Assembly (NCBI GenBank): GCA_964016885.1
Contig: OZ024747.1
Location: 13,020,001 to 13,084,000, forward strand
Source of the DNA: Eledone cirrhosa
Taxonomy: Eukaryota
Direction: 5' to 3'
DNA: 64,000 nucleotides
The position numbers and the translations under genes were made by a program. The notes below the pieces were generated by a model. The model was given only the letters and a program-made list of their open reading frames with translations, was not told where the DNA came from and did no database searches. Below, in pieces: positions 24,715 to 51,187 of this stretch (within the stretch, counting starts at the first letter, position 1; each line of letters opens with the position of its first letter).

Positions 24715-24862
24715 CAGAGTATAAAAGTTTTAATATAGATGAGATTCTACAGGACTAGAACTGTTTCATTCTTTAGAAATCATCAGGAATCTGATGATTT
24801 CTAAAGAATGAAACAGTTCTAGTCCTGTAGAATCTCATCTATATTAAAACTTTTATACTCTG
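24715..24862. repeat. Perfect 72-bp inverted repeat with a 4-nt spacer
   Basis: 24715-24786 is the exact reverse complement of 24791-24862, spacer GAAT. Confidence 0.97.
24742..24792 (-). ncRNA. Type-I hammerhead ribozyme motif, complete fold
   Basis: AGAUUC-CUGAUGA-U[UUC UAAA GAA]U-GAAA-CAG(UUCUAGUC)CUG-UA/GAAUCU. Stem I is 6 bp, stem III is ACAG/CUGU, and the cleavage triplet is GUA. Confidence 0.75.
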
Positions 24863-25597
24863 CAATGTATTGAGTACCTTACTTACTGTGGTTACCTCCG
24901 ATTCAACCCGGAATAACGTACTATATACATATATATATATATACATATATATATACATATATATATATATATATATATATATATATATATATATATATAT
25001 ATATATATATATATATATACATATATATATATATATATATATACATATATATATATATATATATATATATATATATACATATATATATATATATATATAT
25101 ATATATATATATATATTTTCTTTCACTACCTGATATCACACGTCACTTGTGTTTTTAATTCCAGATATATTCCGTTGTCCCTCAGCCGCTTTTATGTATG
25201 TTTACTTGCGTATATTTTGTACCCATTTATTCATACGGCTGTTTTTTTATGTATGTATGTATGCGTATGTGCGCATATATATGTATACGTGTTCGTATAT
25301 GTATACGAACGCATTCGTATGTGTAAATGTGTGTGTGTGTATGTGTGTGTTTACGTATACGTGTTTTTTATATGAATGTATATATATATATTGTTATACT
25401 TGGGGAGGGTCATATTTGTGTAATATTGCCAGAATTAATAACAGAACACACTCACTGTTTGGTTGGTTTTCGCTTCTCGCTTCTGTGTCTTTTATATCGG
25501 TAATCTAACTTACTCGGTCCTCAATGTTGCCATTGACTGACCGACGGTCAAAAATAATACAGATACAATATAGACACAAACACATATATATATAGTT

Positions 25598-25641
25598 TAT
25601 CATAAATCTTTCGTTGCACATCTGCAACATCGTCAGTGGTG
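25598..25641 (-). ncRNA. Decayed minimal hammerhead motif
   Basis: CACCA-CUGACGA-U[GUUGCA GAUG UGCAAC]-GAAA-GAUU-UA/UGAUA. Perfect 6-bp stem II, two mismatches in stem I. Confidence 0.55.
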
Positions 25642-25735
25642 CTATCTTTTCCTCCTGTTGTATTGTATATATACTTATATATATATATATATATATATGG
25701 TCGCATGTGTGCGTGTGATTAGATGTGCATGTATG

Positions 25736-27920
25736 TCATCATCATCATCATCATCATCACCGTTTTACGTCCGTTCTTCCATGCTAGCATGGGTTAGACG
25801 GGTTGTGCTGTTGTGGACAGTGTCTGGTTGGCTGACCATGCCTTGCTCATACAGGAACTGATTTGGGCTTGATTTCTACAGCTGGATGCCCTTCCTAACA
25901 CCAACCTCATTTACAGTGAGTGCTGGGTGCTTTTTTTCCATGGCACCTCCACGACCACTTTGCAGTGGGAGGGTGTGGGGGCATATTGTCTATATGCTTC
26001 AGCTTGTACCCATGGGAGGTCAGGTACTCTGTATTACTGCGTGACGCCAGAGGTCACGGTCATGTGTCATCTCCTTTGAGAGGTGTAATTGGGTAAGGTC
26101 GGCTTTTATCACCTCATCCCAGGTCATCTTGGGTCTCCCCACTCCGCAGTTTCTATTGACTTCTAGTGCTCTGCACCTTTTATGCAACTGTCATCCTTCA
26201 TACGCATCGCATGTCCATACCACCGCAACCTCCTCTCATGCACACAGCATTTGATTCCTCTTATGCTCAGTCTCTCTCTCAATTCATTTATGCTTTGCCG
26301 TTCGTGTATATTACTATTACACATCCATCGGAGCATGCAGGCTTCGTTTCTTTCTAATCTACGTAAGTCTTCCACCTTCAGCGCCCAGGTCTCACTACCA
26401 TGTAACATTGCTGTTCGTATACACGCATCATACAGTCTGCCTTTCATTTTGAGGGAAAATCCTTTTGCAGCTAGCAGTGGCAGTAGTTCCCTGAACTTCT
26501 TCCATCCCGTTCTTAACCTAGTTATTGTACTTTCTGAACACCCACCTCTGCTGCTAATTCGGTCACCTAGATAGTAGAAGCTGTCTACTGTTTCTACAGA
26601 GCCCTCCCAGAGATTGGTGGTACTTGTTTCCTGTGGCTGTTTGCTGCTTGCTGTCCCAGCACAGCTGCTACATGCGAAGCCTACATTCTTAATTAAGCTT
26701 CCTGAGATCCCGCTACATCTCTTGTGTACCCATTGTTTGCATTTGGGGCAGAGAATGGAGTTCCTACCTACACCTTTCCTACATACTGAGCAAGGCCATT
26801 TCCCTGAGGGGATCTGGGTTCTGTTTTCTCATCTACTTACAAGGACCTTAGTCTTTGTCATGTTGACTTTGAGACCCTTTCTTTCTAGTCCCTGCTTCCA
26901 AGTTTGGAATTTCTTCTCTAGTTCTACCATAGATTCTGCATACAGGAGTTCCCATGGGCATCCGGTCTTAAACTCCTCCGTTATTGCCTGCAGGACTATG
27001 ATGAACAGGAGAGGGCTAAGAACAGAGCCCTGGTGGACACCAACCTGTACGCTAAATTCTTCGCTATACTCATTGATAATCCTAACTTTGCTGACTGCTC
27101 CCCTATACATGGCTTGTACAGCTCTAACAAGCCATTGATCTACTCCTAGTTTTCTAAGAGCCCACCAGATTATAGCACGTGGAACTCTGTCAAAGGCTTT
27201 CTCGAGATCGACGAATGCCAGGTAGAGTGGCTTACTTTTAGCTAGGTACTTTTCCTGTAACTGCCTCACAAGGAAGAGGGCATCAGTGGTGCCTCTTCCT
27301 GGTACAAACCCAAATTGCATCTCATTTAGTTTCACCCGGTCCCTAATCAACTGTGCTATAACTCTTTCTGTTACTTTCATGACCTGGTCCATCAGCTTTA
27401 TACCTCTATAGTTTCTTCTATCTAGTGCATCACCTTTACCTTTGTAGCAGTTGACAATGATGCTACTGCACCAATCTTTTGGTATGACACCTTCTAGTAT
27501 TACCTGGTTAACAATACTTGTGGTTATAGTGTGACCTACAGACCCAGATGCCTTCAGCATCTCGGCAGCTATACCCAATGGACCGGTTGCCTTCCCCATC
27601 TTCATATCTTTGATTGCCTTACTTACTACGCTGCTGCTGACTTGTACTGCTGGCCCCTCTATAGGGTCTACTTGGGGTAGGGTCTCTTCTTCCCATGCAT
27701 TCTCCTCATTTAGTAATCTATCATAATGGCTCTTCCATGCATCTTTCTTCTCAGCACTTGTGAGGGCAAGCTCACCTTTATCATTCCGGATACACTTCTC
27801 TCCAATGACTTCACAATTCTCTCTGACACACTGCCTCGCAATCTTGAACACCTCCTGTTTCTGGTCCTCACGTTGCAAAGCATGCTTGAATTTTCTATCC
27901 TCTGCTTCCCTCCTAGCTAA
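25736..27920 (-). mobile_element. 5'-truncated, inactivated RTE-clade LINE (RT, PHD-like finger, C-terminus, 3'UTR, (GAT)n tail)
   Basis: RT motifs NYRGIKL, QFGF.PGRGTTDA, AFVDLEKAFDRVP, GVHQGSVLSPLLF. C-terminus LHGSETW...RRLRWYGH...GRP. Premature TGA at 26829-26831, 1-nt deletion near 26180, YADD motif missing. Confidence 0.95.
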
Positions 27921-28522
27921 GTATATATATATTTATATATATATACTTTTATTTATATATATATTTATATATTTATATATATATTTATATATATATTTAT
28001 ATATATATATATATACATATATATGTTGATTGTAAACTGACATCATGCTGACATGCTGGGTTTATACAGAGAAAAGCTTGGATCAAATTATTTCTTTATA
28101 TCTTGGCAGCAATGGATAAATGTAGTGGGAAAACAAGTAGAAAACAAACAAACAAAAGATCTCTTCCTGTAGCTTAGCTCCAAGATGAAACAGAGTTGAT
28201 AGTAATTTTTATACTGTTTTACATGTGATTATAGACTGACACGAAATAGAGGTTAGAGTCTGTGTGTGTGTGTGTCAAAAGCTTGCTTGCTTTAATGTAA
28301 GAAACCTGGTTGGATATAGAAATTATTTTACATATATTTTACACCTAAGTATTCGGAGAAGTATAGAATATAAGATCGGCTTCAACAAAGGGATGCATGA
28401 CATGAAATGAAGAGTGTGTAGAAAATATATATGTGAAACACAGGCAGCAACAGAAAACACACACACACACTAAATATATATATATATATATATATATATA
28501 TATATATATATATGTATATATA

Positions 28523-28933
28523 AGTAATAGAGAAGACCCGCCTTACCTAAATACATAGTAAAACCTACTACAGTCAGTAGGCATCTCTAACAAAATACAC
28601 CCCCGTCCCACCACCCCCACCCCATCCACACTGCCCCTTTCAACGTAAAGTTATGTTGGTGCCACACCATCCAGGCCGAAACAAATGAGATCGTGTAGGT
28701 GTCACGACAAAAAAACACACAGTCCACGCTGTAATGTGGCCGTGTAGGCAACACGGTAAAAACCTCCCAGACCCACACTGTAAATGTGGTTGGTGTTAGG
28801 AAGGGCATCCAACTGTAGAAAACCTGCCAGACAGTCCTATGCGAGCAAGACAATCACTCTTGCCTCAAGTGGGAAAACCCCCGTCCAAACCCATGCAAGC
28901 GTGGAACACGGACGTTAAACGTTGATGATGATG
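28523..28933 (+). mobile_element. RTE LINE 3'UTR fragment, nearly identical to 31972-32407
   Basis: Long near-identical match to the 32-kb copy, (GAT)n tail, embedded in (TA)n. Confidence 0.9.
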
Positions 28934-50513: not shown

Positions 50514-50737
50514 AGGGTGGTGGATTGGCAGTATCAGTAGAGCATCAGACACCATGCTTTGCAGCATAGAGTTATGGCTCTTCAGGATTTGAGTTCAAAT
50601 CCCGCTGAGGTTAGCTTTGCCTTTCATCCTTACAGGGTCGATAAAATAAAGTACCAATCACGCACTGGGGCCAGTTTCATTGACTTTTCCCTCCCCCAAA
50701 ATTGCTGGCCTTGTGCCTGTATAAGAAACCATTATTA
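50514..50737 (+). mobile_element. tRNA-derived SINE, major family, long form
   Basis: As above, plus an extra ~33-bp segment before AATTGCTGGCCTTGTGCC. Head-to-tail with the next copy. Confidence 0.88.
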
Positions 50738-50745
50738 CTATATAT

Positions 50746-50937
50746 AGGGCGGTGGATTGGCAGTATCAGTAGAGGGTCAGACGCCATGCTTTCCAGCATA
50801 GTTACGTCCCTTTACGATCTGAGTTCAAATCCCGCCGAGGTTGACTTTGCCTTTCATCCTTACTGGGTCGATAAAATAAAGTACCAGTAATGCACTGGGT
50901 AATTGCTGGGTAATTGCCTAAAGTAGAAACAATTATT
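50746..50937 (+). mobile_element. tRNA-derived SINE, major family, short form
   Basis: Box A TGGCAGTATCAG, box B GAGTTCAAATCC, central GCCTTTCATCCTTAC.GGGTCGATAAAATAAAGTACC, 3' end AGAAACAATTATT. Confidence 0.9.
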
Positions 50938-50949
50938 ACTATATATATA

Positions 50950-50994
50950 ATACAAGCTGAGGATCCGCTAAGATGAAACAATTGTTCTCGGTAT
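50950..50994 (+). ncRNA. Decayed hammerhead motif
   Basis: AUACAAG-CUGAGGA-UCCGCUAAGAU-GAAA-CAAUUG-UU/CUCGGUAU. Palindromic stem III, weak stem II, imperfect stem I. Confidence 0.4.
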
Positions 50995-51151
50995 GGTGAA
51001 CTAATTGTTGTGTAACCACTTCTATATATACACACACACACACACACACACACACACTATTCAATAATCATCATTCTTCTTTTTCCTTCTTCCCTTGTTT
51101 CTCTATATTTTCTTTTTACATCCCTCCATCTCTTGTTCTCTATTCTATTCT

Positions 51152-51187
51152 CTTTCTGATGAAGGGCTAATGTTCGAAATGTCAAAG
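51152..51187 (+). ncRNA. Minimal PLE-type hammerhead motif
   Basis: CUUU-CUGAUGA-A[GGGC UAAU GUUC]-GAAA-UG-UC/AAAG. It resembles CUGANGAAGGGC....GCUCGAAACGUC minimal hammerheads, with apparent C>T decay. Confidence 0.65.

Follow-up and report, generated by a model that had tools for sequence, protein, structure and literature searches.

Hammerhead ribozymes in the pseudo-long terminal repeats (pLTRs) of Penelope-like elements (PLEs), solo copies, inverted pairs, and retrozymes have already been described (PMC4209133, PMC7229834, PMC8557442, and bioRxiv 10.64898/2026.07.22.740005), and a PLE origin of animal retrozymes has been proposed (PMC7229834; bioRxiv 10.64898/2026.07.22.740005); comparisons made here refer to portions of the accounts cited. 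These papers leave open what the hammerhead does in PLEs and how their inverted, tailed insertions arise. In vitro, a PLE reverse transcriptase (RT) starts internally at two sites and extends both strands, with uncut RNA as the main template (PMC11167929). Here, we analyzed a 64,000-nt stretch of the Eledone cirrhosa genome (contig OZ024747.1, positions 13,020,001 to 13,084,000, forward strand; referred to as the window), which lies in a 3.0-Gb, AT-rich genome rich in microsatellites and carries hammerhead motifs at five sites, A to E. We consider it probable, at about 0.7, that C, D, and likely A are terminal repeats of coding PLEs, that E is likely an old one, that B is a coding-free retrozyme, and that all were copied from uncut RNA by the mechanism proposed below.

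A preliminary description of this stretch had placed five CUGANGA...GAAA..UH motifs within 27 kb, and all five were found where it had put them. Site positions are given by C3 of the core, from which relative positions are counted (C3 = 0); they are 24786 (minus strand) for A, with a mirror core at 24791 (plus), 25636 (minus) for C, 44230 (minus) for B, 50957 (plus) for D, and 51156 (plus) for E. The letters of the window confirm the core at every site, and the type I elements CUGANGA, GAAA, U16.1, and H17 are present at all five. Helices I, II, and III, or a palindromic helix III, are formed in families A, B, D, and E, with substitutions in the window copies of B and D. The window contains 15 core-only motifs, compared with 4.5 ± 2.1 in 300 block shuffles. 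A strict fold descriptor accepts two of the five sites (A and E; 0.05 in shuffles) and a wider one accepts three (A, C, and E; 0.08 in shuffles); B and D fail because the substitutions sit in these particular copies, and the majority of each family folds fully. An Rfam scan, which had been recommended, returned 100 matches in the window down to an E value of 10, with no hammerhead among them. Direct contact with (TA)n was found for A, B, C, and D and was lacking for E, and both of the reported inverted-repeat junctions, at A and B, were confirmed. We assign all five sites as type I hammerhead motifs of multicopy repeat families.

Genome-wide, exact core matches number 10,296 for A, 12,458 for B, and 2,746 for D, with none for reversed controls. 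In a sample of 39 stretches of 10 kb taken at fixed round coordinates (390 kb), 21 full hammerhead folds were found, compared with 0.37 (maximum, 2) in 30 shuffles, and 67 cores, compared with 23.5; when a long helix II was permitted, the folds rose to 26, compared with 0.27. Extrapolation weighted by chromosome class suggests approximately 150,000 motifs in the genome (range, roughly 100,000 to 250,000). (TA)5 lies within 300 nt downstream of 19 of the 21 sampled motifs and of 25% of random positions. In 1.40 Mb of loci, which are enriched for the query families, 361 matches formed 40 clusters, of which 14 were single. Of 42 strand pairs selected blind to helix I, 12 have helix I paired at four or more of five positions, compared with 4.1 when the strands were swapped (maximum, 11 of 2,000), a test that alternative registers of one motif dilute. 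Among family A variants, pairing amounts to 80.8%, compared with 32 to 51% when the strands were slid, and compensatory two-sided changes occur at four of six helix I pairs, with noise added by one misplaced row of the 10 used for both figures. The motif density thus exceeds that of shuffled DNA, and the inserts are neither single copy nor unconserved. In several hammerhead families, helix II inserts of 48 to 115 nt, which escape short-spacer descriptors, accompany a perfect palindromic helix III and a helix I of 5 to 10 bp.

Family C (25370 to 25674, minus strand; predicted cut after 25603) is a 5'-truncated 3' pLTR with a minimal hammerhead, in which helix II has 6 bp with a bulge and helix I is weak (2 bp, a mismatch, and 1 bp). 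The family has copies at 97 to 99% identity and 272 candidates. In extended loci, C follows a frame encoding RT and a GIY-YIG endonuclease (such frames occur in seven of eight) and often forms inverted ends around a truncated open reading frame (ORF). The linker before GIY-YIG reads CX4CxxC, within the CX2-5CxxC pattern of the Neptune clade (PMC8557442), and C is identified by these features as the pLTR of a Neptune-type PLE. Family E (51072 to 51267, plus strand; predicted cut after 51183) is an old, diverged pLTR-like piece, also with a minimal hammerhead, and has 17 candidates at 68 to 87% identity. A younger family that resembles it, E', lies immediately before a Neptune-like ORF whose linker was read by eye, and it shares only 76 to 80% identity with E over 50 to 66 nt; E, which is older, is likely related to a Neptune-like pLTR. 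Both C and E resemble published PLE hammerheads in the bulge after A9 and the G10.1-C11.1 pair.

Family D (50950 to 51024, plus strand; predicted cut after 50986) is a 75-nt solo pLTR piece with a palindromic helix III, which stops at +68 in (TA)n. Upstream of family D hammerheads, the sequence leads into frames for RT and endonuclease that show Hydra-type motifs, including CxxC and CxH, which identify D as the pLTR of a Hydra-type PLE. The A insertion (24715 to 24921) consists of two short pLTR copies placed head to head in (TA)n. Its perfect 72-bp arms (24715 to 24786 and 24791 to 24862) form a palindrome; the minus arm stops at about +72 and the plus arm at +131. The hammerhead of A (24742 to 24792, minus strand; predicted cut after 24748) has a 6-bp helix I, a U.U under a 3-bp helix II, and a 4-bp helix III with a near-palindromic loop, and the mirror core on the plus strand is without the 5' strand of helix I. 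Full A copies share approximately 450 nt upstream, followed by a (TA)/(TG) tract that holds nested inserts, and one same-strand Hydra-type ORF, with the Hydra-clade CxCx5C linker, is common to 5 of 20 extended loci at 3 to 5.6 kb upstream. A is therefore likely the pLTR of a second Hydra-type PLE. The family A core shows a strand bias (6,426 forward and 3,870 reverse), and the downstream 22-mer is balanced; the approximately 2,500 surplus forward cores may be one long tandem array.

The B insertion (43917 to 44599) contains two shortened copies head to head, 43917 to 44326 on the minus strand and 44323 to 44599 on the plus strand, whose arms meet at 44323 to 44326 and which stop at one each of the two 3' points of the family. 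A portion of the unit is expanded by 66-nt repeats at 43719 to 44049. The hammerhead (44194 to 44236, minus strand; predicted cut after 44200) has a U.U and a 4-bp helix II, and its palindromic helix III is interrupted by one substitution in the window copy. The B unit is closed, with a length of 420 to 430 nt (483 with a long TA tract), and head-to-tail arrays reach at least seven units. A hammerhead in each head-to-tail noncoding unit was found for B only, and no such arrays were seen for A, C, and D in the loci read. No upstream ORF is common to the B loci (0 of 20 extended loci). Folded as a circle, the monomer has a z score of −11 against 30 shuffles, to which the TA tract contributes. 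B is likewise tandem, noncoding, and highly self-paired, with one type I hammerhead per unit, as in animal non-LTR retrozymes, and its U.U closure is that of the axolotl HHR_Amex2 (PMC7229834; bioRxiv 10.64898/2026.07.22.740005). It differs from known retrozymes in its 420- to 430-nt length, its internal (TA)n, its PLE-style inverted pairs, and its two 3' start points; cephalopods are absent from the retrozyme passages of these two sources. B is accordingly classified, alone among the five sites, as a non-autonomous retrozyme, and its U.U hints at a Hydra-type parent. Four contig runs of unknown kind contain B with the helix III palindrome restored and have no bearing on its expression, and B was found at low depth in sequencing runs coded as two other organisms.

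The preliminary description was borne out in its view of these sites as type I, often minimal hammerheads of distinct multicopy families tied to PLEs. Its proposal of several separate non-autonomous families holds for B only, since ORF linkage points to C, D, and likely A and E as ends of coding elements, and linkage to RT/GIY-YIG ORFs was recovered for C, D, and part of the A loci and not for B. The PLE RT fragment that it reported at 30.8 to 31.2 kb is real: a thumb region (30773 to 31180, minus strand) flanked by an assembly gap and (TA)n is 97% identical over 106 amino acids to a 691-amino-acid RT and GIY-YIG frame elsewhere in the genome. This Hydra-type family, H, has 1,911 candidates, and its 3' region has its own, different hammerhead, with a 9-bp helix I, a palindromic helix III, and a helix II of 103 to 115 nt; the fragment is thus read as the partner of none of the five sites. 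A link between B and this element was also rejected, as B merely nests in the (TA)n that flanks it.

Pfam recognized none of six PLE frames, its sole match being RVT_1 on a long interspersed nuclear element (LINE), and a PDB profile search gave only a weak match to a retron RT (E value, 0.016). The PLE identity of the frames is therefore based on motifs and layout, and the clade labels follow the motifs that Craig et al. 2021 (PMC8557442) describe. The CxCx5C linker and the CxxC and CxH around E and N in the partners of A, D, and H match its Hydra clade, and H shows all three features, with CxxC and CxH in the C-terminal endonuclease. However, H reads RWR and DKA and exceeds 3 kb, where the clade has RWK, DKT, and a length below 3 kb, and for this reason "Hydra-type" is used here as a label and not as clade membership. 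The insertions share with the Hydra and Neptune clades a C-terminal GIY-YIG, (TA)n targets, an inverted 5'-truncated partner, and a tail at one end, although the tail is 59 to 70 nt here and 30 to 40 nt in that account, and copy number is high here. The U.U at 10.1-11.1 in A, B, and D and the long helix II of H differ from the published PLE hammerheads with which C and E were compared. At the base of helix II, U.U or C.A accompanies Hydra-type partners (A, D, and H) and G-C plus a bulge accompanies Neptune-type partners (C and E'). Microsatellites within the 3' untranslated regions of Hydra-type elements host other hammerhead families and so form nested stacks, and a 190-nt repeat resembling a short interspersed nuclear element (SINE), with about 10 copies in the window (50501 to 50940, 35289 to 35471, 8633 to 8819, and others), is also inserted just upstream of H and D hammerheads.

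Copy ends provide the evidence on how these families are copied; young families, with thousands of near-identical copies, show to the base where copying began and where it ended. For A, consecutive exact matches were taken from the start of contig C1. The 3' ends of 77 core-selected copies fall at +50 to +67 in 48 and at +125 to +131 in 27, with 2 elsewhere; the 5' ends fall at −10 to 0 in 39, at −11 to −100 in 8, and farther upstream in 30. An adjacent inverted partner is present in 29 of the 39 copies that start at −10 to 0. A second sample of 72 copies, which avoids selection on the core, was keyed on the 22 bases past the predicted cut (+39; 12,370 exact matches); the two samples overlap, and both arms of one insertion were counted. 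Thirty of these copies start at −10 to 0, compared with 1.3 expected for an 11-nt window from the upstream rate, and none starts at +38 to +45, where cleavage is predicted; the others start at +20 to +37 (4), +1 to +19 (13), −11 to −100 (3), and farther upstream (22). This 5' boundary is referred to as the wall. TATAAA at −36, 30 nt before A(−6), is found in 16 of 28 distinct upstream variants, at −38 to −43 in 7, and not at all in 5, and the bases near A(−6) fit an initiator consensus. Several copies have a nongenomic G before −6; fold-back, discussed below, accounts for some, and the extra G hints at a copied cap.

D shows the same pair of 3' classes as A, and B also has two 3' points. D copies end at +57 to +68 in 18 of 30 and at +130 to +135 in 12 of 30, and B copies end at +247 and +306, with scattered 5' ends (read modulo the unit length). 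The inverted truncated partner with an optional tail is present in A, B, and D. Head-to-head pairs in A and D mostly have one arm of each 3' class, the two 3' points being approximately 60 to 70 nt apart, and in A an arm ending at about +60 is nearly always joined to one ending at about +130, with full, partial, or no overlap. Two bystander families, read by eye, also have walls: in family I, six of nine copies have the wall approximately 42 nt above the core and clear of helix I, with a TATA approximately 31 to 33 nt farther upstream, and in family J it lies at about −68.

We propose that a promoter in the terminal repeat would start the RNA at, or slightly upstream of, the hammerhead. The RT-endonuclease would nick (TA)n, and complementary DNA (cDNA) would begin at either of two internal points, approximately 60 to 70 nt apart, downstream of the ribozyme. 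Uncut RNA copied to its 5' end would leave solo inserts of 65 to 140 nt. With priming on both target strands, two cDNAs begun at different start points would be joined head to head via 2- to 6-nt microhomology to give palindromes, and the palindrome at 24715 to 24862 would represent two such cDNAs, one per start point. B would likely borrow a PLE enzyme. Its lack of a fixed 5' end may be explained by a template that is likely multimeric or circular, and the palindromic helix III would pair between neighboring B units to cut the multimer. Cleavage would matter for multimeric B RNA, or it would strip a PLE mRNA of its capped 45 nt. By analogy, the observed ends fit the in vitro behavior of Anolis Poseidon (Frangieh et al. 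2024, PMC11167929), in which the tail is likewise set by two internal RT starts, both strands are primed, and the template is uncut; this one in vitro study agrees with the copy-end record in its two starts and its template. Unlike that work, the evidence here is genomic, concerns different clades, and includes a 5' wall, which would account for both solo hammerheads and palindromes.

Several observations weigh against this proposal. The evidence for the mechanism is genomic. All end counts were drawn from the start of contig C1, and the arms of one insertion are not independent. The ORF link of A spans a microsatellite full of nested inserts in just the 5 of 20 loci, and none of the A or D elements seen was full length and intact, with a 5' pLTR that continues into the ORF. 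Three A copies begin at +35 to +37, close to the cut, two of them with one junction. The 5' ends of D are spread (14 of 30 at −14 to 0 and 24 of 30 at −52 to 0), and no TATA lies at the expected spacing; family F has no wall among 13 copies. Predicted minimum-energy folds of the window copies in short stretches, as monomers or dimers, mostly differ from the hammerhead, with B and D as partial exceptions, a result taken as uninformative. Finally, helix I has its 5' edge at the A wall, and bases at some junctions are templated through it.

This last point brings in the strongest rival, in which the wall marks no RNA end and arises from RT arrest or template switching when the new cDNA folds back on itself via the complement of helix I. 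Part of the A wall can be explained in this way, because of its position and of junctions with 2 to 7 bases templated through helix I, and D ends cluster near the D helix I as well. However, the same wall is seen in solo copies that abut (TA)n, the 30-nt TATA spacing speaks against fold-back, the I and J walls lie away from helix I, and B, with a comparable helix I, shows no wall. Fold-back is thus a live rival for family A and an unlikely account of the wall as a whole. It is considerably less probable that all five sites are independent non-autonomous retrozyme families copied via circles. This is true of B, and most A and D copies are short and ORF free, so that short A copies could be retranscribed, but C and D continue directly into ORFs, which contradicts it for both, and the monomer arrays of B have no counterpart in A, C, and D in the loci read. 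The A palindrome bears on the same question: its junction has 310 exact copies, in which either arm can be long, and for this reason it is taken to be re-formed and not inherited from a single master. A single self-copying master resembling a miniature inverted-repeat transposable element was also rejected, given 310 junctions among approximately 10,000 cores, varying junctions, and arms either of which can be long.

Slightly more doubtful again is a splicing origin of the wall, which would then mark a 3' splice site like that of Drosophila virilis Penelope, with short copies derived from spliced transcripts whose first exon is tiny. Position −4 is preceded by a pyrimidine run and CAG, PMC4209133 reports an intron that ends at helix I, on its 5' edge, and the nongenomic G could be of this origin, yet copies starting at −4 to −6 share no upstream exon, and no matching donor was seen by eye across the upstream 450 nt. 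The last rival, that the motifs arose by chance in AT-rich DNA, might draw on the absent Rfam match and the 4.5 core-only matches expected per window, and it is refuted by the excess of folds, the thousands of exact copies, and the compensatory helix I changes.

Dispersed, mostly single hammerheads, ascribed to truncated PLEs in an earlier account, show the same palindromic helix III and opposite-strand pairs, and the portion of that account considered here is without the mapping of copy ends given above. A tentative generalization, which we put somewhat short of even odds as a whole, is that most animal solo hammerheads would be PLE run-off copies of uncut, capped RNA, with two internal starts, transcription starting at the ribozyme, and an enzyme dimer priming both target strands; that the ribozyme at the extreme 5' end of the mRNA would act as a decapping switch; that (TA)n targets may provide a new TATA box, from which short copies would be retranscribed like SINEs; and that this genome would hold the approximately 150,000 hammerheads in at least 30 families, some of which have a 100-nt helix II that standard searches miss. 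If true, the run-off rule alone would explain solo inserts, the one-sided tail, and inverted pairs. A very large ribozyme population was missed by Rfam here. A giant squid annotation lists 235 hammerhead loci (PMC6962438), and neither "ribozyme" nor "hammerhead" occurs in the main text of an Octopus vulgaris repeat paper (PMC13282606). A literature search with partial coverage, which excluded Repbase and supplements (those of Craig 2021 list Octopus elements), found no account of cephalopod hammerhead families and no report of variants with a 100-nt helix II or of solo pLTRs with a 5' wall. What is new here is these families, within known kinds, plus the mechanistic footprint.

Other features of the window are unrelated to the hammerheads or touch them indirectly. 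The LINE fragment with RVT_1 (26166 to 27932, minus strand) is unrelated to them and is presumably of the RTE type. Tandem repeats of 48 nt (53274 to 53818, 38397 to 38821, 5785 to 5895, and 7647 to 7758) match part of a repeat that follows RTE-like LINE ends (28523 to 28930 and 31972 to 32400). A further small inverted-repeat element in (TA)n has variable junctions, and no CUGANGA core was seen in it; it is possibly a further PLE end. A host exon at 54772 to 55641 (plus strand) is 51% identical to an 889-amino-acid protein with C2 and FYVE_2 domains, of the synaptotagmin-like or rabphilin type.

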